Part shown: one piece after another, positions 16,612 through 64,000 of the stretch
Numbering within the stretch: the first letter of the stretch is position 1
Layout: every line of letters starts with the position of its first letter
Assembly: GCF_036321535.1 (NCBI RefSeq)
Contig: NC_087436.1
Span: 37,450,001-37,514,000, forward strand
Source: Camelus dromedarius
Taxonomy: Eukaryota
Reading direction: 5' to 3'
Length of the DNA: 64,000 bases
Notes under the pieces: generated by a model
The model's database searches: none
What the model was told of the DNA's origin: nothing
The model's input: only the letters and a program-made list of their open reading frames with translations
Translations under genes and position numbers: made by a program

Positions 16612-16850
16612 AGACAGACTGGGAGTTTGAAATTTGTAGATACTGACAGGCATATATACCATAGATAAACAAGATTTTACCGTATAGCACAGGGAAATAT
16701 ATACAAGATCTTGCAGTAGCTCACAGCGAAAAAAATGTGACAATGAATATACATATGTTCATGTATAACTGAAAAATTGTGCTCTACCCTGGAAATTAAT
16801 ACAACATTGTAAACTGACTATAACTCAATATAAATAAGTAAATAAAAAGT
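16612..16850 (+). mobile_element. 5'-truncated young L1 3' UTR
   Basis: Highly similar to the 3' UTRs of L1-D and L1-F (tatagcacagggaaatatatacaagatctt...gtgacaatgaatat...actataactcaata). Confidence 0.88.
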
Positions 16851-25200: not shown

Positions 25201-27897
25201 TCTACCAAACATACAAGAAGAACTCATTACCAGTCCTTCTCAAACTCTTCCAGAAAACTGAAAAGGAGGAAATACTCCCAAACTCATTCTATGAAGCCAC
25301 CATCACCCTGATACCAAAACCAGGCAAAGACACTACAAAAAAAGAGAATTATAGGACAATATCACTGATGAACATAGACGCCAAAATCCTCACAAAAATA
25401 TTAGCAAACAGAATCCAACAACACATAAAAAAGATGACACATTATGACCAAGTGGGGTTCATCCCAGGGACACAAGGGTGGTTCAACATATGCAAGTCAA
25501 TCAATGTAATACATCACATCAACAAGAGAAAGGACAAAAACCACATGATCATCTCAATAGATGCAAAAAAAGCATTTGATAAAATTCAACACCCATTTAT
25601 GATAAAAACTCTCACCAAAGTGGGTATAGAGGGAACATATATCAACATAATAAAAGCTATATATGACAAACCTACTGCCAGCATAGTATTCAATGGTAAA
25701 AAACTCAAAAGCTTCCCACTAAAATCTGCGACAAGACAAGGATGCCCACTATCACCACTCCTATTCAACATAGTCCTGGAAGTCCTAGCCACAGCAATCA
25801 GGCAAGATAGAGAAATAAAAGGGATCCAAATTGGAAAAGAAGAGGTAAAAGTGTCACTATATGCCAACGACATGTTACTATATGTAGAAAACCCTAAAAG
25901 GTCCACACAAAAACTACTAGAGCTGATCGAAGAATTCAGCAAGGTAGCAGGTTACAAGATTAACGTTCAAAAATCAGTTGCATTTCTTTACACTAACAAG
26001 GAATCAACAGAAAAAGAAAGTAAAGAAACAATCCCCTTTAAAATAGCACCCAAAGTAATAAAATACCTAGGAATAAATCTAACCAAGGAGGTGAAAGAAT
26101 TATATAAAGAAAACTATAAACCATTGATGAAGGAAATTAAAGAAGACTTTAAAAAATGGAAAGATACCCCATGCTCTTGGATTGGAAGAATCAATATTGT
26201 TAAAATGGTCACACTGCCCAAGGCAATCTACAGATTTCATGCAATCCCTATCAAATTACCCAGGACATATTTCACAAAACTAGAACAAATCATAATCAAA
26301 TTTATATGGAACCATCAAAGACCTAGAATTGCCAAAGCAGTACTGAAGAGAAAGAAAGAGGCTGGAGGAATAACTCTCCCAGACTTCAGACAATACTATA
26401 GAGCTACAGCCATCAAGACAGCATGGTATTGGTACAAAAACAGACATACAGACCAATGGAACAGAATAGAGAGCCCAAAAATGAACCCACAAGCTTTTGG
26501 TCAACTAATCTTCGACAAAGGAGGCAAGAATATACAATGGAATAAAGACAGTCTCTTCAGCAAATGGTGCTGGGAAAACTAGACAGCAGTATGTAAAGCA
26601 ATGAAGCTAGAACACTCCCTTACATCGTACACAAAAATCAACTCAAAATGGATCAAAGACTTAAACATAAAACAAGATACAGTAAACCTCCTAGAAGAAA
26701 ATATAGGCAAAACATTATCAGACATACATCTCAAAAATGTTCTCCTAGAGCAGTCTACTCAAGCAATAGAAATAAAAGCAAGAATAAACAAATGGGACCT
26801 AATGAAACTTACTAGCTTCTGCACAGCAAAGGAAACCATAAGTAAAACAAAAAGACAACCTATGGAATGAGAGAAAATTTTTGCAAATGAAACCGACAAA
26901 GGCTTGATCTCCAGAATATATAAGCAGCTCATACGACTTAATAAGAAACAACCAAATAACCCAATCCAAAAATGGGCAAAAGACCTAAACAAGCAATTCT
27001 CCAAGGAAGACATACAAATGATCAATAGGCACATGAAAAAATGCTCAATATCACTAATTATCAGAGAAATGCAAATCAGAACTACAATGAGGTATCTATC
27101 ACCTCACACCAGTCAGAATGGCCATCTTTCAAAAATCCACAAATGACAAATGCTGGAGAGGCTGTGGAGAAAGGGGAACCCTCCTTCACTGCTGGTGGGA
27201 ATGCAGTTCAGTGCAGCCACTGTGGAAAACAGTAAGGAGATTCCTCAAAAGACTAGGAATAGACTTACCATACGACCCAGGAATCCCGCTCCTGGGCTTA
27301 TATCCAGAAGGAACCCTATTTCAAAATGACACCTGCACCCCAATGTTCATAGCAGCACTATTTACAACAGCCAAGATATGGAGACAGCCTAAATGTCCAT
27401 CAACAGATGACTGGATAACAAGAAATGGTATATTTATGCAATGGAGTACTACTCAGCCATAAAAACCAACAACATAACACCGTTTGCAGCAACATGGATG
27501 CTCCCGGAGAATATCATTCTAAGTGAAGTAAGCCAGAAAGAGAAAAAAAAATACCATATGAGATCACTCATATGCAGAATCTAAAAAAAAAAAGACATAA
27601 ATACAAAACAGAAACAGACTCAAAGACATAGAATACAAACTTGTGGTTGCCAAGGGGGCGGGGGGGTGGGAAGGGACAGACTGGGATTTTAAAATGCAGA
27701 CTAGATAAACATTATAATGTATGGCACAGGGAAATATATACAAGATCTTGTGGTAGCTCATGGCGAAAAAAAAAATGTGACAATGAATATATACATGTTC
27801 ATGTATAGCTGAAAAATTGCGCTGTACACTAGAATTTGACACAACATTGTAAAATGACTACTACTCAATTTAAAAAATGTAAAAAAAAAAAAAAAAA
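22233..27897 (+). mobile_element. L1-D: youngest near-full-length LINE-1 (inactive)
   Basis: CpG-retaining 5' end ggccaagatggcggggtagaagg, ORF1 lacking its N-terminus, ORF2 from ATG 23787 with a 511-aa open RT segment, [18 protein letters not shown] motif, 3' UTR and poly(A). Confidence 0.95.
23787..27584 (+). pseudogene. L1-D ORF2 (APE endonuclease - reverse transcriptase - Cys-rich domain), disrupted
   Basis: ORF pieces 23839-24138, 24303-24737, 25047-26582 ([24 protein letters not shown]), 26601-26870, 26904-27146 and 27118-27462, separated by stops or frameshifts. Confidence 0.93.
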
Positions 27898-34261: not shown

Positions 34262-35646
34262 ACAATGGAATAGACAGTCTCTTCAGCAAATGGTGTTGGG
34301 AAAACTGGACAGCAGAATGTAAAGCAATGAGGCTAGAACACTCCCTTACACCGTACACAAAAATCAACTCAAAATGGATCAAAGACTTAAACATTAAAAC
34401 AAGATACAATAAACCTCCTAGAAGAAAATATAGGCAAAACGTTATCTGACATACATCTCAAAAATGTTCTCCTAGGGCAGTCTACCCAAGCAATAGAAAT
34501 AAAAGCAAGAATAAACAAATGGGACCTAATGAAACTTGTAAGCTTCTGCACAGCAAAGGGCACCATAAGTAAAACAAAAAGACAACCTATGGAATGGGAG
34601 AAAATTTTTGCAAATGATGAAACCTACAAAGGCTTGATCTCCAGAATATATAAGCAGCTCATACGACTTAAGAAAAAAATAAACAACCCAATCCAAAAAT
34701 GGGCAGAAGACCTTAACAAGCAATCCTCCAAGGAAGACATACAAATGATCAATAGGCACATGAAAAAATGTCAGTATCACTAATTATCAGAGAAATGCAA
34801 ATCAAAACTACAATGAGGTATCTATCACCTCACACCAGTCAGAATGGCCGTCTTTCAAAAATCCACAAATGACAAATGCTAGAGAGGCTGTGGAGAAAAG
34901 GGAACCCTCCTACACTGCTGGTGGGAATGCAGTATGGTGCAGCCATTGGGGAAAACAGTATGGAGATTCCTCAAAAGACTAGGAATAGACTTACCATACG
35001 ACCCAGGAATCCCATTCCTGGGCATATGTCCAGAAGGAACCCTACTTCAAAATGACACCTGCACCCCAATGTTCATAGCAGCACTATTTACAATAGCCAA
35101 GGCATGGAAACAGCCTAAATGTTCATCGACAGATGACTGGATAAAGGAGAAGTGGTATATTTATACAATGGAATACTATTCGGCCATCAAAAATGACAAC
35201 ATAACTTCATTTGCAGAAACATGGATGTTCCTGGAGAATGTCATTCTAAGTGAAGTAAGCCAGAAAGAGAAAGAAAAATACCATATGAGATCGCTCATAT
35301 GTGGAATCTTTAAAAAAAAAAAAAAGACATAAATACAAAACGGAAATAGACTCACAGACATAGAATACAAACTTGTGGTTGCCAAGGGGGTGGGGGGTGG
35401 GAAGGGACAGACTGGAATTTCAAAATTTGTAGGTACTGACAGTCATATGCAGAATAGATAAACAAGATTATACTGTATAGCACAGGGAAATATATACAAC
35501 ATCTTGCGGTAGCTCACAGCAAAAAAAAAAAAATGTGACAATGAATATATGTATGTTCGTGTATAACTGAAAAATTGTGCCCTACATTGGAATTTGACAC
35601 AACATTGTAAAATGATTATAATTCAATAAAGAATTTTTTTTAAAAA
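34262..35646 (+). mobile_element. L1-F: 5'-truncated young LINE-1 (about 1.4 kb) nested in L1-E
   Basis: Closely similar to L1-D 26533-27897. 14-bp TSD aagagggaagtttg (34248-61) / aagaggaaagtttg (35647-60) at an endonuclease-like ttct/aaga site. Confidence 0.95.
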
Positions 35647-37559
35647 AAGAGGAAAGTTTGTAGCAATATAAGCTTACCTCAGGAAACAAGAAAAATCTTA
35701 AATCAACAATGTAACTTTATATCTAAAGGAACTAGAGAAAAAGGAACAAATAAAACCCAAAGTTAAGAGGAGATAAGAATTAATAACGTTAAAATGACCA
35801 TACTACCCAAGGCAATCTACAGATTCAACGCAATCCCTATCAAGCTACCAATGGCATGTTTCACAGAACTGGAACAAAAAAAAATACACAGATTCGATGT
35901 AATCCTTATCAAATTAACAATGGAATTGTCCACAGAACAGGTACAAAAAAAATTCTAATCCGTATGGAAACACAAAAGACCCTGCATAGCCAAAACAATC
36001 TTGAGAAAGAAAAGCGTAGCTGGAGGAATCATGCTCCATGACTTCAGACTATACTACAAAGCCACAGTAATCACAATAGTATGGTACTGGCACAAAAGCA
36101 GACACATAGATCAGTGGAACAGGATAGAAAGCCCAGAAATAAACCCATCCACTTATGGTCAATTAATCTATCAGAAAAAAAGGTAAGAACATACAAAGGA
36201 GAAAAGGCAGTCTTTTCAATTAGTGGTGTGGGGAAATCTGGACAGCTACTTGTAAATCAATGAAATTAGAACATTCTCCAATATCATACAAAAATAAACT
36301 CAAAATGTATTAAAGACCTATATGTAAAACCAGAAACCATAAAACTCCTAGAGGAGAGCACAGGCAGAACACTCTTTGACATAAATCATAGCAATATTTT
36401 TTTTGGATCGATCTCCTAAAGCAAAGGAATAAAAGCAAAAATGAACAAATGGGACTTAATTAAACTAAAAAGCTTTTACATAGCAAAGGAAACCATCAAT
36501 AAAATGAAAAGAAAATCTACTGAATGGGAGAAAATATTTGCAAATGATATGATCAATAAGGGGTAAATATTCAAAATATATAAACATTTCATACAACTCA
36601 TCAAAAAACCCCATCAAAAATGCTCAGAAGACATAAGCAGACATTTTAAGAAAGAAGATAAACTGATGGCCAACAAGGACCAAAAAAAAGATGCTCAACA
36701 TCATTTATCATCAGGGAAATGCAAGTCAAAACCACAGTGAGATACTGCCTCACATCTGTCAGAATGGCTATTATCAAAATGAACATAAATAAATGTTGGC
36801 GAGGATGTGGAGAAAAAGGAACAAGGGAACACTGTTGGTGGGAAAGTAAATTGGTGTACCCCTGTGGGAAACAGCATAGAGGTTTCTCAAAAAATTGAAA
36901 ATAGAACTACCATGTGACCCAGCAATTCTATTCCTGCATATATATCTGAAAAAAAAAGTAAACATTAATTTGAAAAGATACATACACCCCAGTGTTCACA
37001 GTAACATTATTTACAATTGCCAAAATATAGAAGCAAACCTAAGTGTCCATCACCAGATGAATGGATAAAGGCGATAGGGTATCATGCTACATGAAATAAA
37101 TCAGACAGAAAGACAAATACTATATGATATCACTTTTATGTGGAATCTAAAAAATACAACAAACTAGAGAATATAACAAAAAGGAGCAGAAGCACAGATG
37201 TAGAGAATAAACTAGTGGTTATCGGGGGGAGATGGAAGGGGGTGGGGTAATAGAAGGGTAGGGGATCAAGAGATAAAAACTATTATATATAACATAAGCT
37301 ACAAAGATAAATTGTACAACACAGGAAATATATCTAATATTTTATAGTAACTATTAATGAAGTATAACCTTTAAAAATTGTGAATCACCATATTGTATAC
37401 CTGTAACTCATATTTCAACTAGTATACATGAGCTATACTTCAATTTTAAAAAACCCCACAAATACAAAACCAAGTACTATCCATAAATATAGAAAGAAAC
37501 CAGCATTTGTACTTTGGGAATTCAAATAATGATGGTTGAAACTGGGAGAGGCACTTCAG

Positions 37560-49840: not shown

Positions 49841-50079
49841 TGTAGGTGTACATTATAATACTTACATTATTATTTGAATGTAGAAGACTGGAAGGAAGTG
49901 GTGGTGGTAATGGTGAGGGATGGGTATAATGAGAATAATTTTCCATGAAATTTCATTACTTTCTTCTTAGTGTCTAGAGAAGTCACCTTAAATTTAAAAA
50001 ACAAACAAAACTTTTGTTACAAAATGGGCAGGTGAGTACCCAAAAGCAAATTTCTAATTTTTTCTATTGCTGGACTTTT

Positions 50080-52700
50080 ATCCCTACCTGGCAGTAATGC
50101 AGTGGAATCCTCTACTCCCCTGCTGAAGAGCTGTCATCAGAGGTCAATAAAAAAGTCAAATTCTCATAAAATCCCAAATTTCCAGTTTTATTAGAAAATC
50201 ATTCACTATATCAATAACCAGCAACATTTCAACTTAAATGAAAAAAAAAAAAACACAATCAATTGACATAAACACTGAGAAGGCAGAGATGTTAGCATTG
50301 TCTGAGAATAATTTTAAAGCAGTCATCATAAAAATGCTTCAATAAGCAGTTATGAACACATTGTAAACAAGCAAAAAAAGTCTTTGCAAAGAAATAGAAG
50401 ACATAGAGAAGAACCAAATAGAAATTTTGGAACTGAAAAATACAATAACAAAAATACAAAACTTAATGGATGGGATCAACAGCAGAATGGATAGGGCAGA
50501 GAAAAGAACCAGTGAATTTTAAGATAGAAATATAGAAATAATCCAATCTGAACAACAGAGGAAATAGATTCATCACTCCATACTACCCCCTTAAAAAACC
50601 CCAAATAGAGTCTCAGACTTGTGGGACTATAACAAAAGATTTAACCTTCATGTCATCCAAATCTCAGAAGGAGAGGAGAAAGAGGGCAGGGTTGAAAAAG
50701 AATATGAAGAAATAGTGGCTAAAAATTCCCCCCATTTATGGCAAAAGACATAAACTTACAGGTTCAAGAAGCTCAGCAAACCCCAAATAGAATAAGCCCT
50801 AAGAAATCAACACCAAGACACATCATAACGGAACTTCTGAAAACTAAGACAATGAAAAAGTCTGGAAAACAGCAAGAGAGAAATGACACCTTACCTATAG
50901 AGAAAAATAATTTGAATGATAGTGATTTCACTGGAAACCATGCATAAAAAAGCAAGTGGCAAAGTCCATTTCAAGTGCTGAAAAAAAAAAGCAAAACAAA
51001 CAAAAAACACAACAACAAAAACCCCCTGACATTCCAGAACTCTATGTCCAGTAGTAATATCCCTCAGGAATGAATGAGAAGTCAAAGTATTCTCAGATAA
51101 AGGAAAAACTAAGAACATTTATTGCCAGCAGACCTATCCTAAAAGAATAGTTAAGGATGCCCTCTAAACATAAAGAAAGTGATAGGAAGAAGAATCTTGG
51201 AAAATCAAGGAGGAAGAAAGAACAATAGAAAGAGTAATAATATGAATAAATACAATAAATTTTCCTCCTCCTTTTGAGTGTCCTAAATTATTTATGACAG
51301 TTAAAGCTAAAATTGGAACACTAACTAATGTGGTTTTAAATGTATGTAGAGGCAATATCTAAGACAATATATTTGGGAAGGTTAAAGGAACATAAAAGGA
51401 GGTAAGGTTTCTACACTTGACCCAGTCTGGTAATATTGACACCAGCAAACTGGATGAGTTACGTGTATTTAATGTACTACATACAGTACTCATAGAAAAT
51501 AGTTATGTAAAGAGATACACTCAAAAACACCATAGATAAACCTAAATGAAATGCTAAAAAAAAGTTATGTAACCCATACGCAGAAAAACAAATTAGAGAA
51601 ACTAATAATGGAACAAACAGAAAATAAATAAATAAATAAAATGGCTGAATTGAATCCTAACATATCAGTAATTGCATTAAATGTAAATAGAAGATATTTG
51701 CAAATCACTATTGACAAAGAGCTGACATCAAGGATATAAAAAGTACCCTTAAACTCAACAGCACATAAACCAGACAATTCAATTAAAAAACGGATTAAAC
51801 ATATGAGAAGACATTTCACCCGAGAAGAGACTGGGATGGCAAACAGCACAGAAGACATTCAACATCATTTGCTTTTAGGGAAATGCAAGTTAAGATTCAA
51901 TGAGATATCACTACACGCTTAGTAGAACAGCTAAAATAAAAAACAATGACGATACCAAATGCTGCAAGGAGTGAAGCTGAATCTCTCATATATTGCCGGT
52001 GGAAATGTAAAATGGTACAGCCACTTTGAAAAGTAGTTTGGCAATTTCTTAAGAGCCTAAATATACAAGCCATATACTCAACAACCAAATCTCTTGCATT
52101 TCCCAGAGAAATGAAAACACATCCACACAGAAATCTGTACATTGTTCTTCGTAGCTGCTTTATTTGTAATAACCCCAAACTGGAAACAACCAAAATATCT
52201 TACTGTGGGTGACTGGTTAAACTGTGGTACGTCCTCAGCAATATGAAAGAACTACTGATACACCTAACAATTTGGATGGATCTGAAGGGCGTTATGCTGA
52301 GTGGGGGAAAAAATCAGTATCAAAAGGTCATATACTGTATGGTTCTGTTTATACAACCTGTCAAAAGCATAGAGAGGGAGAATACATTAATGATTGGCAG
52401 GGGTTAGAGGTGGTGGGCGGAGGGGCTGGGTGTGATTGTGAAGCAGTAGTCCGAGGAAGATCTTTGTGGTGATAGAAGAGTTTTCTCTCTTATTTTGGTG
52501 CTGGTTAGAGGAATCTACACTTGGGATAAAATGACACAGACCTACACACACTCATTGTACCACTGTGAACTCCTGGTTTTATATTGTGCTATAGTTAAGA
52601 AAGGTGTAATCAATGGGAGTAACCAGGTGAAGTATACATGGGACCTCTCTGTACTATATGGGCAATTTCCTGTGTGCTGTAATTACTTTTTGAATACAAG
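50080..52700 (+). mobile_element. Old L1MC/MD-like LINE-1 (ORF1 plus 3' end, most of ORF2 deleted)
   Basis: ORF1 fragment 50738-50947 (TPNRISPKKSTPRHII), ORF2 start at about 51641 jumping to C-terminal sequence at about 51690, and a 3' UTR with tacatgggacctctctgtacta. Confidence 0.8.
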
Positions 52701-52814
52701 AAAGAAAAAGTCCTATTTTGCCATGGCTAGCTGTGGCCCGCATTATTTCATAAGAAGAGAAATCGTGACTATGGAAAACTCCAATACTCAGTGTTACACG
52801 TAAGCATGACCTAG

Positions 52815-53660
52815 GGCACGAGAAAGGGGGTGGGAAGCAGAAAATGGGGAGCCCGGGAGGAGGTTCCCTCGCCGTGAGGATGCGGAGGCGGCGGCCACGC
52901 CACTGAAGCGGTGGGTGAGTGGAGCGCTGCCGAGCTCCAGCCCCACCCTCTGCCGCTCCGGGGCGGGTGCGCCGTCCTCGCACCGGAAGGCTGGGGAGCC
53001 AGAGGCGGGGGGACCGTCGCGCGGTGCTCCGGCACTCCGGAGGGCCACAGAGAAGAGCAAGAGAACTTTGAACCTGAACAGTTTTGGTCAATGGGATAGC
53101 CTCCCACGCTTTGGCTTCCCGCTGCTTGACTGTGGATAGAGCCCTGCGCTGCTTTCCTTCCCCCGAACATCGGAGGTGCAAGCGGGAGCACCCCCTCGAG
53201 CCCGAGTCCGGAGCGGAGGCTGTCCCGGCCTGTCCCCCGGCAGCCTGCGCCTCGCGCGCGGCGCGGGAGTCCTCGCCCCGGACAGTGGATGGCGCTCAGG
53301 GCGCGCGCGGCATGCAGTCGCTCAACATCACCCCGGAGCAGTTCTCCCGGCTGCTGCGGGACCACAACCTGACGCGGGAGCAGTTCATCGCGCTGTACGG
53401 GCTGCGGCCGCTTGTCTACACCCCCGAGCTGCCTGGGCGCGCCAAGCTGGCCTTCGTGCTCACCGGCGTGCTCATCTTCGCCCTGGCGCTCTTCGGCAAT
53501 GCACTAGTGGTCTACGTGGTGACCCGCAGCAAGGCCATGCGCACCGTCACCAACATCTTCATCTGCTCCTTGGCTCTGAGCGACCTGCTCATCGCCTTCT
53601 TCTGCATCCCGGTCACTATGCTCCAGAACATCTCCGACAACTGGCTGGGAGGTGAGTCCA
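52815..53660. promoter_or_regulatory. CpG island / QRFPR promoter and 5' UTR with GC boxes
   Basis: Abrupt switch to GC-rich, CpG-dense sequence in an otherwise CpG-depleted window. Sp1-like GGGGCGGG near 52960 and GAGGCGGGG near 53002. No TATA box is evident. Confidence 0.88.
53312..53651 (+). CDS. QRFPR: Pyroglutamylated RFamide peptide receptor (GPR103), coding exon 1 (N-terminus, TM1, TM2)
   Basis: ATG at 53312 (ggcATGc) translates MQSLNITPEQFSRLLRDHNLTREQFIALYGLRPLVYTPELPGRAKLAFVLTGVLIFALALFGNALVVYVVTRSKAMRTVTNIFICSLALSDLLIAFFCIPVTMLQNISDNWLG. This is the recognisable QRFPR N-terminus with class A GPCR GN (TM1) and LAxSD (TM2) motifs. The exon ends at a canonical donor G|GTGAGT after 340 nt (phase 1). 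Confidence 0.97.
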
Positions 53661-54049
53661 CGCCCTCTCCTTCTCCCCTAAGTCCCCAACCTTCCAGGTC
53701 CCCTCACTCCCCAACATATACCCTACTCTTCTGACTTTCTTGTATTTTTCTTGGTGCCAAATGAATCCAGTGCCCTTTCTTAGAACTTTCTCAACTGCGC
53801 ACCCTTGGAGATAAGTTTTTTGCTGCCTTTGATTCTGTTCCAGCGTTTTTCTCCTCATCGCTTAGAGATGGAAGTAAGGGAAATGCTTAGGAGAGGTTCA
53901 GGGCAGCAAGATGGGAAGTCGCACCACTCTTCAGTTGTTTCAGCTCCCCTTTCCATAATTACCAGGATTTTCCCCCTATTTTTTAAAATAACAGTGAGAT
54001 AAAATATTTCAAATAATTAAAGCTCCAACATTCTCCCATTTTTAAGTTT

Positions 54050-54086
54050 TATATATATATGTATACACACACACACACATATATAT
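54050..54086. repeat. (TA)n(CA)n compound microsatellite in intron 1
   Basis: tatatatatatgtatacacacacacacacatatatat. Confidence 0.85.
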
Positions 54087-56593
54087 TAAACTTTAAAACA
54101 AATATAATGCATTTGCAGAATAAAAATCTTGAACTGTCCTTTTTAAAAAATATATTAACAGAGTCACACAGGGAGAAGGAACACAAAATATGTGTCCTGA
54201 CTGATAAAGGAGGAGAGATTAATTTCTCGTCCTTCCTTAGAAGGGGAGCAGAAATGGCAGAGAACCATTCCGAGTCATTGTTGGGAGCAGTGTGTGGAGA
54301 AAAACTGGCACTGCACTTCACCAAATGATCCAGTCCTTCCAAAGAGACACAACTAGAGTGTGTCTTTGTAATCCATAAGCAGTCATTGAGTGTATTTGCA
54401 CCAATGCTTAAGATGTACCTTGAGGAGGGAGCATTGGTTATACCTGTGCTTTTATGGGTTGGTGTATTCTTATGGCCACATCAAAATTCTTATAAAGTGT
54501 CTGGAAATATAGAGGGAATGTGAGAGAAATGAACTATTATTTGTCTTCAAGCTCTGCTGTTTCCACCCCTTGGCAAATTACTTTTATTCTCACAGCAAGT
54601 GTTTCTTTCACCCTATCATTACCATTTTGAGATCTTCAATTTATCTCTCTGGTGTTGCTTTTTTTCATTAATTTGCACTAAGTTTATTGTTAGTAGATCA
54701 GGATGCTAAAATCTTTGATTCCCATCTCGTCTATGATGTAAATAATTTCCCAAATGCACTAAACATCAGAGTACATAGCGTTGGCTTGAAAGTGACACAT
54801 AATGCAGAGTCATAAGTTGACGTACAGACTTTTTATGCACTCTGATGAAATCATTGCACTTGGGCATTCTGAAGTTGCCAAGTGCAGCTAACTCCACAGA
54901 GTGAATTTCTAAATGCTTGTGAAGGCAGATTTCTGAAGCATGTTTGTATTGCTGGCTGATTATGACGCCATTTGTAAAGATGAACGTAGTTCAGCAAAGT
55001 GGGTTTTTATACTGGGAATCAAAAGACCTGGATTATTACTTTGACATTAATATAGGTTAATTCCACATGTCAAGACTTAGTTTTTCAATCAAATACTAAG
55101 GATTCTGGAAGCTTGGAAGTGGAATGAGGCAAATCTTTAGCACTTATTATCGGAGAACAACGCCTGGGGAAGACTGCACGGTGGACCTTCCCTCCTGAGA
55201 ACTCTGGTGGGCACTGCCAAGATTTTTCTCAAACTTTCTGTTTTCCTAATAAATGGTGGACATCTCACTTTAACTTCTAAATGCTGACAAAGGGTAATAC
55301 ATTGTTTATGTATATTTCGGGGTTAGTGTGAGGATAAAGTGTTTTAGAAAAAGTGCTTTGAAAAAACTGATCATTCCATGAAAATGTAAGGTGTTAATTC
55401 TTTTAAGGAGTGTTTAACTGGAGACAGCTTATGTTCATCTGGGACCAGATTTATAGAATAAAGATTCTTGTAAATTGAATAAGCAACACCAAAGCTGAAG
55501 TTCAGAGGAGAGGAGAGATCTTGCAAGGGTACTAGAGATAGTGGTGCAAAGAGAACTAACTTGTACTTTACAGGAGAGGGTAATAATTGCAAAACTCCCT
55601 TGATAAATGAACAAAAGAGAGTTCAAGGGACTACAATCTAAGTGTCAAGAAGGCTTCACTGAAGTGGGGATCTTGATGAATTCAGACTGGTTCCAGCAAA
55701 GAAAGAAGGATGGAGTACTTCCAGGAATGGGGGTCTACCTAAAGTGTGGAGGAAGGGGGGAGGGTATAGTAATTTTAAAAATAATTAAAATAATAACAAC
55801 AACAATAATAAAAAGTAATTAAATAAATCAAACTAATTACCTCCTCTTCTCCCCCCCAAAAATAATAAAGTGTGAAGGAAAGAAAGAAGGTAATAGAGTC
55901 CAAGGACACTGCGTAAGGAAGGCATTTCAAGAATATATAGTTTACACGTGGGGAATGTGGGAGGAAATGAGACAGAAAGGTAGGTTAGTGCAACTGGAGA
56001 GGAAAAGGTGTATTAAAAGTTCTGTAAATCCTAAGATATGAACACCCCTGAAATTCCTTCAGGAGTAAGGTCGGAAATATAAACAAGCAGTGAAGACTAC
56101 CAGGAGGTGACAGTGGCAGAAGGGCGACTGGGTGTCTCCCAGGGGTGGGATTTCTGCAGGCCAGGCCAGGTGTGTGCCCAGGGTTAGCACATCTTCTTTT
56201 GTTGTCATTGCTATTGCCTTAATTATGGTTTTTTTTCCCCAGAGAGAAATTCCCACCCTGGGAATCCTGATTTTTGTAATGTTGGCATTTAATTCAGATT
56301 TTTAAAATAAAATACAGTTGGGTGACAGAAAACCTCTCTGTGGGTTTGGCCACAAATCATGGGCCTCCAGTTTGTGACTTCTCTACAAAGTGTTTCTGAC
56401 AATGGTAGAGCTGGAAATGACGATTTCTTTCTTCTTTTAGTCCACTCATTTCCCTTGTTAGGGACAGAAGGTGACTTCTGAGTCAGAGTCTACATTTTGA
56501 TAAGGTCTCTAGGTGACTCACATGCACATGAAAATCTGAGAAGCACCACTTTTCAGACTTGGTTGTACGGAGAATCTCCTGAGGGGCTTTTTA

Positions 56594-57040
56594 GTTTTTT
56601 TGAAGTATACTGGATTTACAGTATTGTATTCATTTCAGGTGTACAGCATAGTGATTCAGTTACACATATTTATATTTTTTCAGATTATTTTCCATTATAG
56701 GTTATTATAAGATATTGAATATAGTTCCCTGTGTTCCCTGTAAATCCCTGTTATTTATCTTTTTTTTTATTTGGTGGTGTCTATCTGTTAATTCGATACT
56801 CATAATTTACCCCTCCCTCATCCTGTTCCCCTTTGGTAACCATAAGTTTGTTTCCTATGTCTGTGAGTCTCTTGCTGTTTTGTATATAAATTCATTTGTA
56901 TTATTTTTTCTAGATTCCACATATAAATGATACCATATAATATTTTTCATTCTCCGTATGACTTACTGCATTTAGTATGATAATCTCTAGGTCCATCCAT
57001 GTTGCTGCAAATGCCAATATTTCATTCTTTTTTATGGCTG
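56594..57040 (-). mobile_element. 5'-truncated L1 3' end, antisense in intron 1, inserted in a MER5-like relic
   Basis: tttcaggtgtacagcatagtgattcagtt...ccatgttgctgcaaatgcc, with TSD ctga(g/a)gggcttttta at 56579-93 and 57038-52. Confidence 0.88.
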
Positions 57041-57104
57041 AAGGGCTTTTTAAAGTGAACTGTGCCAGCCCCAGTCCAGCCTAGTTGCATCTGACTCTCT
57101 GAAG

Positions 57105-57280
57105 TCAGTGTGTGCTGACTTACAGAGTGCATTGTGCACATCTCTGCCCAGTTCCCTGTTTGGGGACATTATGTTGTCGGCTTGAAATTGCTCGTGGCAA
57201 GAGTATTTACACCATGGAAATTGGCAGCTACAAGTTAGGCCTTTAAAAAAAACCCACATAGTTGTTACCCAGCATACTAA
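57105..57280. mobile_element. MER63A-like hAT-Blackjack relic
   Basis: attgtgcacatctct...gcttgaaattg...gagtatttacaccatggaaattggca. Confidence 0.7.
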
Positions 57281-57971
57281 TGAGCAAAGCCATTGAGTTC
57301 CTCTTTGTATAGTGATGGCACCATGAACAACAGGGGAGACAATGTGTATCCATAAATATTTAGTTTATTTACGTGAATTACATGCAACTCACAAGGAGAT
57401 ACGAATGATCCTCAGCATCTAAATGTTGCCCATCATCGAGGCAAGCTGATGTGCAATCTCCTTCATATACCCTGCATTACCACCCTAATATTGGCTATCT
57501 TCGACCTACCAACTGGCTCATTCCCACAGTACCCCTCAAACTTCTTCCAGGATAGAGCGAGCAGGAGTGGGGATTCGCTTCCCCCAAGAATGATATATAA
57601 CATTTGCTTCTGACTTTTCTTTTATCACTAATATGAGGATGGAGTTGTATTGCCATAGCATTTAAGAGTCAGGCCTTGGAAATTCCGTTTCTGTTCTACT
57701 CTCTGATCTACTTAGTTGGACTCTAGCAGGGAACTTGCCCATTGTGTGTCTGGGGCCATGGAATTTACCTCTCCTTATCTGTAGCCTGTTCTTCATTTTG
57801 TGTCTTTCTTTCTTCTCCTTTTATTTCTTTCTTCACAATACTTGCATTTTCCTCCAAATACACTGACTGAATGTGTTCTATTTTTTCCAGCTGAATTCAG
57901 GGTAATACATTTTACTTCTGAGTAGTGGTCCAGAACACTTTGCTCTCTTCTCTATGTTTCCATAAACTTCT

Positions 57972-58472
57972 TCTTTTTTTTTTTTTTTAACATTTTTTAT
58001 TGATTTATAATCACATTTGACAATTTGTGTCAAATTCCAGTGTAAAGCAGAATCCCCCAGCTATACATGAACATACATACATTCACCATCACACCCTCCT
58101 CTCTGTGAGCTACCACAAGATCCCATGCATACCTCCCTGTGCTATACAGTATAATCTTGTTTATTTATTCTACAATTTTGAAATCCCAGTCTGTCCCTTC
58201 CCATCCTCCGCCCCCTTGGCAACCACAAGTTTGTATTCTATATCTGTGAGTCTGTTTCTGTTTTGTACTTAAGCTTTGTTTGTTTGTTTGTTTGTTTGTT
58301 TGTTTTAGATTCCACATATGAGCGATCTCATATGGTATTTTTCTTTCTCTTTCTGGCTTACTTCACTTAGAATGACATTCTCCAGGAGCATCCACGTTGC
58401 TGCAAATGGCATTATGTTGTTGGTTTTTATGGCTGAGTAGTATTCCATTGTATAAATATACCACCTCTTATT
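57972..58472 (-). mobile_element. Young 5'-truncated L1 (about 500 bp), antisense in intron 1, with clustered A-to-G hypermutation
   Basis: Poly(T) followed by the reverse complement of an L1-D/F-type 3' UTR and ORF2 end, with internal (TTTG)n. Flanked by a 26-bp direct repeat. Confidence 0.93.
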
Positions 58473-59591
58473 TCTTCTCTAGGTTTCCACAAACTTCTCT
58501 TTTCCATCTTTGTTATCTTTATGTCTCTGTCTCTTTCTTTATGCTCTGCTTTTTAATGGTTCTCACATTTACCCTTAATTTTTAAGAGTGTGTTGCCAAA
58601 GCCTAGTATACAATGTCTTTTCTTTCATTATTCATTTTTGCATTAAGGCTATAGTCAGGACTCTCGTTTCTTTGCTGATGATTCTGAAATAAGTATCTAA
58701 TCATTATCGTAAACCATAGTCTCTCACCTGATCTGAAGACTAGGCATTTACACATGGATATCTTGCCTGCCTCCAGTACTCTCTCACCCTATTTTGTCCC
58801 TCTGCCCAGGTCTAAACTGTTATTAATAGTACCACCAGTCATTCTTGTACGCAGCATTTCTTAGGTATCGGCCGTTGTGTCCTGGATATTTTAGGTGTTG
58901 AGAAAGCTGTGCCCTTGTGGAATAGCTAGTTTCACATAGAGCAAGAGGGGGAAGGAAGCATTCAAAGAGAAGATAGAGAATGCAGAGGATTTTCTTGATA
59001 TTAGTGTTCCAGAGTGCACAGTGGTGCAAGCACGGTGGAAGTGTTGGAGGGGAATTTGTGTCAGATTGGGATGAGCTTGTATGAGGATCAAGGCCAAGGG
59101 ATGGTCTAAGAGAATGGAACTTGTGGTGACAGGGAAATGTGAAGTTGAGGCTTGGGGGGATTAATTCTGAAGACCTCCCAGAAGGAAGTGGAAAATCAGT
59201 GCTAATTCTAATCTTTTATGGTTCTTAGCATTAATAAGGAGAGATGGGGAATGTCTGTGGGAGGAGTGGAGTGATGGCTTTGCTAGGAGCCCACAGGGCT
59301 CTGTGCCCCTTTCTTCCTGCTGTGGATGTAGTTCCAGCCAGAGGAAAGAACCGACTTCCCAGCTGTGCGCGGAGCTCCGTGGCTCCTCCTGCAATCCTGC
59401 TGTGGGCAGTGAAAAGAACTTTCTAATGGTGGCTGACAAACTGAGTAAAAGCTCTTCCAGAAAAAGAGTTCCAAAAATACCCTAAGTAATGGCAGTGTCC
59501 GTGGGAGAAGTACACATTTGATGACTACTAGCTTGGGTGGTCAAATGTAAAAATTAATTTCCTCATCAGCTCATATGAGAATTCCTCCTAG

Positions 59592-59765
59592 ACCAGTGGT
59601 TCTCAACTTCCCAGAGGATCACGTGGGGAGTTTTTTAAATGATGCTGGATTCCTTACCCCTAGAGATTTTGATTTAATTGATCTGAATGATACCTGGGTA
59701 TCAGATTTTCAAAAGTTCCCCAAAAGAAAAGGTTATAATTTGTAGCCCAGGTTGGGAACCACTGA
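59592..59765. mobile_element. MER5-family relic
   Basis: cagtggttctcaac ... gttgggaaccactg inverted termini. Confidence 0.75.
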
Positions 59766-61069
59766 TGTAGTTCAAATGCTGAAGATTAAAAGAAATAATG
59801 TATGTAAAGTACTTAAATGGCACAATGCCTGTCACATGTACCAGCACAATATAGCTATTATATATTTTTTTAAAATAGCAACTGGAGTTGGAATGATTGG
59901 AAAATGCAGAAGTAGGTTGCATAAAATGGAGTCCAACATGGAACTCTGAAGCAGTTCTTTCATTGTGTGCAGCCAATCACATCTTTACTGAAGCCCTTGA
60001 CCTTTTCAGAGTCTTTCAAAATGGATTTGGGAAGAAGTCAAAAATGATGAACATGTTGGGATCTAAGATAGGCAAAGAAGGACTGGAAGAATGATTCTCT
60101 CACCTGGAAACTAGAACTTTAATTCTAAACTAGCACAGCCCACAACAAGGTCTTAGGTCTGTTTTATCCCGAGTCATAGTGGCTGATGTGGGTGTGACAG
60201 GATTAAGCAAAGCTCCCAAGCTTCCTCAGAACTACGCCTTTCTCTCTTTTTAATAGATCAGGTTTTGCATGAAAAAGAATTTTCCCGCAGGAAGGACCAA
60301 CGTACCAGAGGGAGGATAGGAGGGGAAGAAAGAACACTCACTGCACTCAGCATGACTAATTTAGGTGTGTTTTTAGAGATTTTAAGATAATAAGTTGTGA
60401 AATGGGCTACTAAAAGAAGTTATTGAAATTTTATTTTTTGGTGAAATGATCTCAGTTCTTTAGACAACTTCAGAGCATGGGGATTAGACTGGAATGTCTG
60501 GTCTGTTTTATCATCTGATTCATGGTTAAAAACATCACTTTTCTATAACATTTCAGAAACTTCAGAATCCTAGGGGGAATTTTAATTTGATGAGACTGAT
60601 GTGAAATCAACAATATTACGGGGCTTTTAAAAAATCTTTTAACAGTCATGATGAAAGCTGTGGGAAAAGAATAGTCTCATTAAAGTAGAGAAGTTTAAAA
60701 AAATAAAAGAAATGAATGAAAGGGAGGCCCAACAGCAACAACACTTTGGAAGTAAAATTTAAAAAAAAGTTGTGCCCTGGGGCTAGCCTGGGGGTGATCC
60801 TCCCTAGAATCAATTATGTACATGCTTTGAGAAGAAAAGATGCCAGGGGATCAAGACAATTACTAAATTCTCTTGGGACATCAGAGCTGGGCAGTAACAG
60901 CAATGGGATTTATATAAAAGATTCTTTCTACTTAGGCACAGGATTTTACAGTTAAAGGATTTAACAATGAGACAGTTTGAAAAATTTCATTGTGCACGTA
61001 GGAAAATAAAAGGAATCTTTTTAAATTTGCTTTTCTGTAGCATAGCTCAGCATATTCTTTGATCAGTGG

Positions 61070-61960
61070 TTGGTTTATTAGGATTCTTGTTGTGAGTAGA
61101 ATAGCCCAACTTTAACTAAAGGAAATAGAGGAATATTCTGTCTCAAGAAACTGTGAAGCTCAGAATTAGAGATAGTTTCAGGCACAGCTGGATCCAGGTC
61201 CTCCAACAATGGCTCCAGGGCTTTGCCAGTCTCCCTTTGTTCCTAGCTTCACTTCCTTCTTTATTGTAGTTTCATTCTTGGGCTGTCTTTTGTCAGGTAT
61301 GTGAAAGATGGTCCCTGGAGCTATAAGCTTACATTTTCTTTAAAACTCCCTGTCTCAACTCAAGCGTCTATCACAGTTGAATGAATAGACAAAGTGTGCT
61401 ATATATACATAATAAAATACTGCTCAGCCAAGTTCTGATAATAAACATTCTGCTAAATGAAATAAACCGGACACAAAAATGATAACTTTTATGATTCCAT
61501 TCATGTTTGCCTATCTAAAAGAGACAAATTCATAGAGCTAGAAAGTAGATTACACATTATTTGGGGGCTGAAGGGGAAGAGAAATAAAGAGTTATTGCCT
61601 AATAGGTATAGACTTCTGTTTGGGGTGATGAAAATGTTTTGGAAGACAGTAGTGACGGTTGCACGACATTGTGAGGTAATTAATGCCAGTGAATTGTATA
61701 CTTAAAATGTTTAAAATTACAAATTTTATGTTATATACATTTTACAATAAAAATTTTCCAAAAAAATTAAAGAAAAATTTCCTCCTTATATCAGGAGGTG
61801 AGAGAGGATCTTTCCTGGTAGCTGCAAAATGCTCTGGAGAATTCCAGACAGCTTAGCATCATTCTCTTACCCATAGAATCCATCACTGTGGCCCAAGCTA
61901 TGAAATCCTCTGCTCAAGTATCAGTCATGTACCCATGCTGGTGGGGAAATACAGGGGGGG
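61070..61960. mobile_element. Old MLT1-type LTR interrupted by a + strand L1MB-like 3' end (about 61360-61775)
   Basis: MLT1J/K-like ttcaggcacagctggatccagg. The insert has tgaatgaatagacaaagtgtg...ttggggtgatgaaaatgttttgga...ttttacaataaaa. Confidence 0.6.
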
Positions 61961-62009
61961 AGGGCCAGGGCCACCCCCACTTCAATGACTCGGATTGAGT
62001 AGAGTTGCT

Positions 62010-62640
62010 ATGGGGAGATGAGGGGAACAGCTCCACCACGGCACCCTGGCAACCTTGCACATCTTCCTATAGGACAGGTAGGCAAGGCTTAACCACCATC
62101 TGACCTGAGTCTTGGCAGAATGCCTGGTGACACCTGGAGCAGGGGGAGAAAAGCCTGGTGGGTAGCCATGGTGAGGCAAGTCTCTGTCCCTGTTTCCTGG
62201 GGGACTGACCACTTCTCATCCATCCCCCTAGTTTGATTTTACTAGAACACCGGACTTCCCACCGTGCCCCCACTTCAGGCCCAGCTACAGGCCTTTGTGT
62301 AAGTCTGTAAAATTGCTTTTACTTTAGGGTAGAGGGGGTGGTCCTCATCTGCAGAGTACCCATTGTTCATGCCATCGGCCTCCTGGCCATTCAGGTTTGG
62401 TGTCTTCTTTGGGCTGAGGGACCCAGGGAGCTGACACCGTGTTGATCTTGTTTTACTGGTTGTGTTTTTACCTTGTCTCCTTACTGACAGAATCTGTGCA
62501 GTAGGAGTACTTCTGCCCTCTTAGCCACCACACTGCTGTTTGGGAATGCTTGACACTCGACAGGAAGTTATCCTGAAGGTAGGAAGGCATGCAAGTTAGA
62601 CGATCGTGCTTAATAGAGTTGCCTGCCTGTGGCTACTGGA
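62010..62640. mobile_element. Probable old ERV LTR
   Basis: GC-richer block with LTR-like motifs (ggtcctcatctgcagagtacccattgttca, gaggggacccagggagctgacacc). Family not assigned. Confidence 0.4.
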
Positions 62641-63649
62641 CTGAGTCTGACTGATGGAAACTATAAGCTCCCCAAACATACGTCTTCCATCTTTGGTTTC
62701 TTTGATGTCCTCCCACAGAGCATAAGCTCCGGGCTAGGTTTTTCAGGACCAAGCTCAACCAGAGTTTTGAAGAGCCTCCCCTGGTGACCTCTCCTGGTCT
62801 GGAATGGATGCGGGCATCTCCCTGAGTTGCTCCCACCACCATTACACGCTTCTTTTCAGTTCCTTGAGCCGCCATGCAGCTGCTTTCTCCTGGTGCTGGA
62901 GATAGGCCTTCTCCCTCTGCTAAGGAATTATTGAAAGGTCAGTGAACCGGCTCTGGGAACTCCATCTTGGCAGTTCCTTCTTAGTCTGTCTCTAAAAAGG
63001 ATTTAGCAGAAGCTGAACTTCTTGCTTCTTTTCCTATCTTAAAACTATGGATTTCTAGTGATTGATGTTGAAGTACTCAAGTAAGTGTTTATTGTTTGTA
63101 TCTATCTATGCAAAACTAAATTTGTTCTCCCTATGGCTGTGTTTCTGAGAAATACATCACCTTTTATACCAGAAAGATTGCAGATTATTAAGTCTCCTTA
63201 TAACATGTTCTCATATCCTGGGAGAAATAGAAGAGTCAGATTGTTTGGTACAGTGAAAATGAACATGTACTTTAAAGTCAGACAGTCTTAGTTCTAACTC
63301 TGTTCTACCATTTACTGTATTAAACAGATTGTAGGTTACATTTCCTTGCACTCTATCTGCCCCCATTAGAAGACGAAGCAAAGAAGTTAATAATGGATGC
63401 TGCTGCCCCACAGTGGTCAGTGCAGCCCCAGAAACTACAAGAAAGATGAAGTTTTACATCGTACTATATTTTAACAAAAATATTCATGCATATCCAGTTC
63501 TGATGATATCCCATTGGATTTCAGTATGAAGCAGCTAGTATTTACCTATTTTCACCTGTAAAACTTGAAAGCCCCTTTCAATATACGGATGAAGAAACAT
63601 TAACATTATTCAAAAAAAAAAACTTCCTGTGAAATTGAGATACCTGCAG

Positions 63650-63815
63650 ACATTACAGGTTGGTAAACACTGTGTTTGGTGTTGGGACAATTATTTAATT
63701 TCTCTTTGCTCTAATTCCCTCATCTGTAAGCTTGGGAAAACCTATGCCCACCTTACAGGGCTGCTGTGAGAATGAATGACCCCACGTGGAAAGGACCTGG
63801 CACTTAGAGGGGACC
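63650..63815 (+). mobile_element. MIR SINE
   Basis: ttgggacaattatttaatttctct...ccctcatctgtaag...ttacagggctgctgtgagaatgaatga. Confidence 0.7.
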
Positions 63816-63869
63816 CAATAGAAAGAAACAGATTGTTATTCACAGCTGTGAAGTATTAATCAACAAATC

Positions 63870-64000
63870 AGACTAAACCAAAACAAACACGTAGATACAG
63901 AGGACAGAGTAGTGGTTACCAAGGGGAAGCAGGGAGGGCAAAATGGGTCAAGGGAGTCAACTCTATGGTGATGGATGGAAACTAAGCTTTTAGGGGTAAG
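63870..64000 (+). mobile_element. L1 3' UTR fragment (runs off the window)
   Basis: aaacaaacacgtagatacagaggacagagtagtggttacc...caactctatggtgatggatggaaacta. Confidence 0.75.

Follow-up and report, generated by a model that had tools for sequence, protein, structure and literature searches.

A dense one-strand A-to-G tract in a dromedary L1 3′ UTR as a probable genomic record of ADAR-type RNA editing

A 5′-truncated L1 copy on the minus strand of the window (the whole 64,000-nucleotide stretch of Camelus dromedarius DNA analysed here) contains an 80-nt tract in which 18 of the 35 ancestral sense-strand A's now read as G (51%), whilst none of the 22 T's reads as C. The one-strand cluster is real and far beyond chance. 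The best reading, which we consider likely to be correct, is that ADAR-type editing acted on the L1 RNA before it was reverse-transcribed; the main new support for editing is a sister locus on another contig (L003, contig C23), a retrocopy which carries two complementary L1 arms that are both rich in A-to-G changes. The features of the insertion, and the three further L1 pieces of the window that serve as unedited comparators, are as follows.

58473..58498, minus strand: 5′ copy of the target-site duplication (26 nt), 24 of 26 positions identical to 57946–57971
57989..58472, minus strand: 5′-truncated L1 3′ end (end of ORF2 and 3′ UTR), belonging to group A (loci L002–L030)
57974..57988, minus strand: poly(A) tail, A15
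57946..57971, minus strand: 3′ copy of the target-site duplication, pairing with 58473–58498
58054..58133 (q417–q338 of the element), minus strand: A-to-G tract, putatively hyper-edited, scored against the group A majority
58125 (q346, adjoining q347), minus strand: C-to-T change directly 5′ of an edited A, a putative decayed new CpG
58088 (q383, adjoining q384), minus strand: C-to-T change directly 5′ of an edited A, a putative decayed new CpG
27420..27895, plus strand: older-subfamily L1 3′ end, A-rich in the tract, 81% identical to the element, unedited comparator
35148..35648, plus strand: older-subfamily L1 3′ end, 79% identical, unedited comparator
16661..16848, plus strand: short older L1 3′ end, 75% identical, unedited comparator

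The minus-strand element has the hallmarks of target-primed reverse transcription: an A15 tail, 5′ truncation within the end of ORF2, and a 26-nt target-site duplication matched at 24 of 26 positions; the inserted copy is approximately 485 nt long. The sense-strand polarity of the changes, taken together with the poly(A) tail and this duplication, fits a change made in RNA. The event is old, since both newly created CpGs have decayed, the duplication is mismatched at 2 of 26 positions, and the flank of the tract lies 5.8% off the subfamily majority. The element was searched against the same genome (2.3 Gb in 171 contigs), which gave 40 further matches in the list returned, and 29 other copies were taken as loci; these group A-type copies are 86–91% identical to the element over approximately 490 nt (87–91% on BLAST re-scoring). 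Approximately 900 nt away, and oriented like the element, lies a second, older L1 fragment (56811–57041, minus strand; corresponding to q35–276, 74% identity).

Substitutions were scored against the column majority of 25 copies of the same subfamily (group A) from the same genome. By strict majority there are 20 A-to-G changes between q338 and q417 (58133–58054); because q355 and q395 vary among copies of the subfamily (the copy L004 has both G's), these two were scored as inherited, which leaves 18. The remainder of the tract differs from the majority at two positions, both C-to-T and each directly 5′ of an edited A; there is no other change and no transversion. The flank, with 382 aligned positions, has 22 substitutions of ten types, including A-to-G at 3 of 167 A's and T-to-C at 4 of 83 T's. 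The A-to-G excess of tract over flank (Fisher, 2.0e-13) and that of A-to-G over T-to-C within the tract (Fisher, 1.8e-5) are both pronounced. Fifteen of the 18 edited A's are preceded by A or T. The opposite, APOBEC3-type change, G-to-A, occurs at no position of the tract and at three of the flank.

The initial reading of the locus, made from its sequence without database searches, stands on these points. The minus strand at 58048–58135 reads as was quoted; the 'about 17' A-to-G changes estimated by eye are 18 (20 by strict majority), and the suspected skew is confirmed as an extreme bias, with 18 A-to-G changes and no T-to-C. Both C-to-T changes described as lying directly 5′ of new G's are present, at 58125 and 58088, so that both of the two CpGs that editing would have created now read TpG. 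The proposed sparing of A's preceded by G is likewise seen in this copy, with one of six such A's edited.

The alignment on which these comparisons rest comprises the element and 87 other copies, in which three groups were defined: group A (25 copies from the element search, with the A-to-G-rich copies L003, L013, L015 and L021 left out), group Y (24 copies picked by their 5′ flank only, with five atypical copies left out), and group G (16 copies from a search with the tract). At positions that separate the three groups, the element has the group A states. The 18 edited positions are A's in group Y, in group A, and in the older copies of the window, and only q355 and q395 amongst the G's of the element are shared subfamily variants. 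When the tract alone was searched against the genome, the best non-self identity was 84% (40 matches scored of 349 candidates), which argues that the pattern of G's is not a subfamily trait; a concern that many copies might carry exactly these G's is thereby answered for the matches scored. No cluster of at least six A-to-G or T-to-C changes was present in any of the 29 copies selected by 5′ flank alone. The word GCTCACAGAG-R7-TGTGAY, which covers a run of seven A's, has 3,440 matches genome-wide and, among the first 100 listed, the element alone has at least three G's in the run. Approximately 13 of the same first 100, L005 among the carriers, have AAAGGAA in place of AAAAAAA; this two-G variant is probably a subfamily marker.

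All three of the in-window paralogues originally compared with the tract are real and A-rich there, as described; they belong, however, to older subfamilies with 75–81% identity. Group Y (L062–L090) is a very homogeneous and presumably young L1 subfamily, with a 9-nt deletion at q305–313 and 3′ UTR states of its own; its 5′ part is 91–93% identical to the element, and the tract region differs.

Other copies carry A-to-G clusters. The search with the tract enriches for G-rich copies, and the counts below, made over the whole aligned element, are to be read accordingly.

L003: 25 A-to-G, 0 T-to-C
L036: 13 A-to-G, 0 T-to-C
L041: 15 A-to-G, 2 T-to-C
L042: 13 A-to-G, 2 T-to-C
L033: 22 A-to-G, 4 T-to-C
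L034: 20 A-to-G, 2 T-to-C
L039: 20 A-to-G, 4 T-to-C

Since these copies were found by similarity to a G-rich tract, A-to-G changes at the element's own G positions were selected for; off those positions the seven copies, in the same order, still have 10, 5, 7, 7, 14, 13 and 12 A-to-G changes. Within the spans of the clusters, T-to-C changes number 0, 0, 0, 0, 0, 2 and 2 for the element, L003, L036, L041, L042, L033 and L039, respectively. On the question whether clusters recur elsewhere in the family, matches to the tract search thus include copies whose A-to-G clusters differ from that of the element and lie in the corresponding region of the 3′ UTR. L033 and L034 (L033:546–1667 and L034:542–1667) are different loci whose flanks are unrelated. 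The two pieces are 91% identical, have 13 A-to-G positions in common, and share one starting point of homology, approximately 1.1 kb from the 3′ end; they appear to descend either from a single source that had already been edited or from a non-autonomous unit of 1.1 kb.

The strand preference was also counted across the genome, as exact matches to degenerate words which left every other A (or T) open to editing and tolerated CpG decay. GG at q416–417, where the sense strand has two A's, occurs 29 times versus 10,378 words with AA; CC at q399–400, where it has two T's, occurs once versus 2,910 with TT. As the baseline of this first T word is small, a second T control was added: C at both T's of TGTATA (q404–409) is found 5 times versus 9,405, and one of the five is the antisense arm of L003. 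The comparison of 29/10,378 with 6/12,315 gives a Fisher value of 9e-6, or 0.012 if only distinct words are counted (15 versus 5), in a census which compares different dinucleotide contexts and in which several of the 29 GG matches share a 24-mer with one another and could stem from a common ancestor. By eye, 21 of the 29 GG copies have at least one further A-to-G change in the 24-mer beyond the common subfamily variant, as do approximately 12 of the first 100 AA rows listed; two of the six CC copies have another T-to-C change. A mirror search, made with a T-to-C-hypermutated arm, gave 39 non-self matches on a flat plateau of 84–88% identity, and the three of these that were inspected are ordinary copies with at most 3 of the arm's 15 C's. 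The genome-wide word counts favour sense-strand A-to-G doubles over T-to-C doubles.

The locus L003 informs most directly on the mechanism. Positions 1501–3240 of L003 comprise an L1 with an A-tail followed, from the very next base, by a 1.24-kb segment with a poly(A) of its own. This segment (L003:1987 to approximately 3226, starting right after the first A-tail) has a counterpart on contig C7 (L091/L092), with 92.5% identity. The homology ends on C23 in an A11 tract; on C7 an intact AATAAA is located 17 nt before the homology ends, and the sequence beyond runs on without an A tract. The position of the second poly(A) at the C7 AATAAA signal indicates that the C23 locus is a retrocopy, composed of L1 and 1.24 kb of C7 sequence, and the segment would have been either 3′-transduced or template-switched from C7 and polyadenylated at the C7 signal. 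In-place conversion at L003, an earlier candidate, was dropped because the second poly(A) and the AATAAA mark an ordinary retrocopy.

The structure resembles that of an L1 3′ transduction. The arrangement of an L1 with its A-tail, sequence from another locus and a second poly(A) after an AATAAA is the same; unlike in such a transduction, the parent locus on C7 is without an L1 and no target-site duplication was found at L003. No source L1 was present at the C7 parent locus in this assembly, where the 688 nt upstream match nothing else in the genome, and the 22-mer that follows the second tail of L003 has no nearby second copy with up to three mismatches. It must therefore be assumed that the source L1 has been lost or is polymorphic, or that the template was switched.

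Within the C7-derived segment, an antisense L1 3′ end (L003:2317–2466) lies approximately 330 nt downstream of the sense L1, as part of an older, twin-primed insertion. Compared with its C7 paralogue and read on the RNA strand, this antisense arm has A-to-G changes at 17 of 39 A's and T-to-C at none of 67 T's; the only further changes are one C-to-G and one A-to-C. The remaining approximately 1.1 kb of the segment has a symmetric spectrum (14 A-to-G, 12 G-to-A, 8 C-to-T, 7 T-to-C and 25 transversions). The sense arm has 25 A-to-G changes and no T-to-C, the conversion of A's in the two arms is 53% and 47%, and both clusters fall inside the complementary interval. In their edited form the arms are predicted to fold into a continuous stem of approximately 150 bp (−254.7 kcal/mol, z −12.7, with none of 20 shuffles as good). 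This is the pattern that ADAR leaves on an inverted-repeat duplex formed by a single RNA, here one that was later reverse-transcribed. As the retrocopy keeps both edited arms of the duplex, edited L1 RNA must have been reverse-transcribed in this lineage.

The element in the window has no such partner beside it. A sensitive BLAST search of 50000–64000 found no inverted L1 copy near it, the other L1 pieces there being in the same orientation, and by BLAST an inverted L1 piece adjoins the edited element at L003 alone among 12 loci of A-to-G-rich copies and the region of the element. This is as expected if it was the source transcript that was edited. Nor does the 3′ UTR supply a long duplex of its own: self-folding of an unedited relative gave z −1.08, with 10 of 100 shuffles as good, and that of the edited copy z +0.50, each with short hairpins only. 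The proposal that the RNA was edited over a local duplex is therefore not supported, and the partner is more likely to have been an antisense L1 3′ end. Conversion of approximately 50%, in a 3′ UTR without its own long duplex, suggests a near-perfect partner of at least 80 nt, and the geometry of the sister locus L003 makes an antisense L1 3′ end the most likely candidate. L1 copies are 5′-truncated, and the 3′ end is hence the part of L1 that is commonest in the genome, in either orientation.

The sequence neighbours of the edited A's give a mixed picture. Pooled over eight clusters, A's were edited at 61 of 90 sites with 5′ A, 31 of 64 with 5′ T, 11 of 43 with 5′ G and 9 of 52 with 5′ C, from sites that are few and not independent, as the same positions recur in related copies. 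On this pooled count 5′ G is disfavoured (11/43 versus 101/206, p 0.007), and 3′ G is not enriched (10 of 38 edited, versus 102 of 211 for the other bases). The ADAR preference given in a published review is U > A > C > G on the 5′ side and G > C ~ A > U on the 3′ side (PMC11019741), and for hyper-edited RNA Porath et al. report G as depleted upstream and enriched downstream (PMC4365171). The clusters follow the rule for 5′ G, 5′ C is edited unexpectedly seldom, and the rule for 3′ G fails; we count these departures against the editing reading, though not as its refutation.

The structures and counts above are best explained as follows. A group A L1 transcript would have been base-paired, over 80 nt or more of its 3′ UTR, with antisense RNA, most likely the 3′ end of an L1 copy in the opposite orientation that was either part of one read-through transcript with it or supplied in trans. 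About half of the adenosines of the duplex would have been deaminated to inosine by an ADAR enzyme, which the L1 reverse transcriptase would read as G, and target-primed reverse transcription would then have inserted the 5′-truncated copy of approximately 485 nt with its poly(A) tail and 26-nt target-site duplication. Decay of the two edit-created CpGs to TpG would have come later. From the sequence-only reading, the proposition that an L1 RNA was hyper-edited, reverse-transcribed and integrated is supported by the substitution spectrum, the uniqueness of the tract and L003; for the element itself we infer that the edits preceded insertion, and likewise that ADAR was the enzyme, what the partner was, and that the setting was the germline or early embryo.

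Clustered mutation of the DNA after insertion, by error-prone repair with a WA-motif polymerase or by ADAR acting on the DNA of an RNA:DNA hybrid, is an improbable alternative. The 5′ A or T found at 15 of 18 edited A's is a WA context as well, and on the evidence of this locus the changes may predate or postdate the insertion. Polymerase error gives changes neither as dense nor as one-sided as half of the A's and 0 of 22 T's. The same sense-strand polarity in other copies and in the word census, the flat mirror search, and the sister locus, demonstrably a retrocopy, also speak against changes made in DNA. ADARs do deaminate dA in DNA:RNA hybrids in vitro, according to a review (PMC12925331) that cites Zheng et al. 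2017. Somewhat less probable again, and in our view very unlikely, is a mosaic origin, in which the tract came from a G-type L1 subfamily by gene conversion or template switching and then acquired a few extra mutations. The G-type is a real subfamily, with two diagnostic words that match the genome exactly at 455 and 474 places and frequently occur together in a copy, and 7 of the element's 20 G's (q348, 355, 373, 375, 385, 391 and 395) are also G in sampled G-type copies, a sample biased toward G-rich members and enriched for the G at q385; that G belongs to a minor sub-lineage of 20 copies, as a five-G word has only 20 exact matches. The other 13 G's are not G-type, however, and G-type states interleaved with the shared ones are missing from the element (q344 T, q360 G, q369 C, an insertion after q369, q319 G and q326 G); the best donor match to the tract is, again, the 84% amongst the 40 candidates scored.

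We give little credence to an assembly or sequencing artefact with A as the true base. Twenty sequencing runs from 10 studies, under four organism labels, contain 0.70–0.83 of the 31-mers sampled from 57850–58650, shares that cover the 78 sampled words jointly without telling which words each run has; two decayed CpGs and avoidance of 5′ G are foreign to sequencing error, and the same kind of cluster is found at other loci. Equally hard to credit is entry in place, whereby an edited transcript of the locus served as template for repair, or for cDNA-mediated conversion, of its own gene copy. The idea came from L003, before its retrocopy structure was known, and is compatible with everything seen at the locus in the window; L003 has nevertheless turned out to be an ordinary retrocopy, with its second poly(A) after a polyadenylation signal, and near the element there is no inverted partner to make a transcript double-stranded. 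Editing of the L1 RNA ahead of reverse transcription remains the preferred reading.

Deaminase signatures frozen in retroelement copies have reportedly been described before: Carmi, Church and Levanon are said to have reported APOBEC3 G-to-A 'DNA editing' fossils in retrotransposons in 2011, and Knisbacher and Levanon, in 2015, genomic A-to-G clusters in retroelement copies. The APOBEC3 fossils resemble the present tract as one-type clusters recognised against paralogues; the change is the opposite one, sense G-to-A arising from deamination of C in the cDNA, and no G-to-A is found in the tract. To judge by its title, and by a sentence citing it which lists hyper-editing in 'mammalian transposons' (PMC5850729), the 2015 Knisbacher and Levanon paper considers the RNA editing of retrotransposons to be one source of genomic change.

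The closest biochemical parallel is ADAR hyper-editing of double-stranded RNA formed by inverted repeats (Alu, SINE, L1), with which the tract shares a conversion of approximately 50%, and L003 the geometry; in that system the edits are differences between RNA and an unchanged genome, whereas here the G's are genomic and 3′ G is not enriched. The Bass review puts the ADAR end-point at 40–50% on perfect dsRNA longer than about 50 bp, a level that cellular substrates seldom reach (PMC11019741). Another review describes Rous-associated and avian leukosis virus sequences from the mid-1990s that were hypermutated from A to G, with 'nearly 50%' of adenosines changed and one case in an inverted repeat (PMC12925331). 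These retroviruses resemble the element in that edited RNA was reverse-transcribed and the edits passed into DNA; they are exogenous and were found in infected cells, whereas the element is a non-LTR retrotransposon, inserted by target-primed reverse transcription and fixed in the host genome.

For L1 itself, Orecchini et al. report no editing in more than 2.5 kb of transfected L1 RNA in cell culture, with ADAR1 restraining L1 independently of editing and a small edited fraction left open (PMC5224506), and the 2016 Goodier review leaves it 'not yet determined' whether ADAR editing has a part in how Alu subfamilies evolve (PMC4982230). Our full-text literature search, in which subscription journals are thinly covered, returned no description of genomic ADAR fossils in L1. 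Events of this kind have been described in retroviruses and, going by a title and a citing sentence, in mammalian retrotransposons, rarely in so clear a form.

If the editing reading is correct, the locus in the window, and above all L003, would indicate that heavily edited L1 RNA can finish retrotransposition in vivo and reach fixation. Edited copies would then keep a record of which L1 RNAs had formed duplexes and over which stretch, and of how completely ADAR acted in the germline or early embryo. Dense A-to-G tracts also make a copy look older than it is and can pass for differences between subfamilies. Were full-length elements to remain active after editing, their edits would be a direct input to L1 evolution.

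A bolder proposal, which we put forward tentatively and think somewhat less probable than its negation, is that ADAR hyper-editing of L1 3′ UTRs is a recurrent source of heritable mutation that founds L1 lineages and does not just leave dead-end copies. The G-type copies (L035–L058; for example L048:1437–1667) have seven derived A-to-G changes, at q319, 326, 348, 360, 373, 375 and 391, within 73 nt of the 3′ UTR, in which comparison with older copies and with groups A and Y reveals no other derived substitution type; this subfamily could be the trace of an edited founder. The 13 A-to-G positions that L033 and L034 share, despite their unrelated flanks, point in the same direction. If lineages have been founded in this way, RNA editing would have helped to drive the diversification of L1 into subfamilies.

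Amongst the copies collected, two pairs of loci on contigs C37 and C38 (L020/L023 and L046/L047; 3.1–3.5 kb) are 99.7–99.9% identical end to end, so that the two contigs share very recent duplicated or homologous segments.
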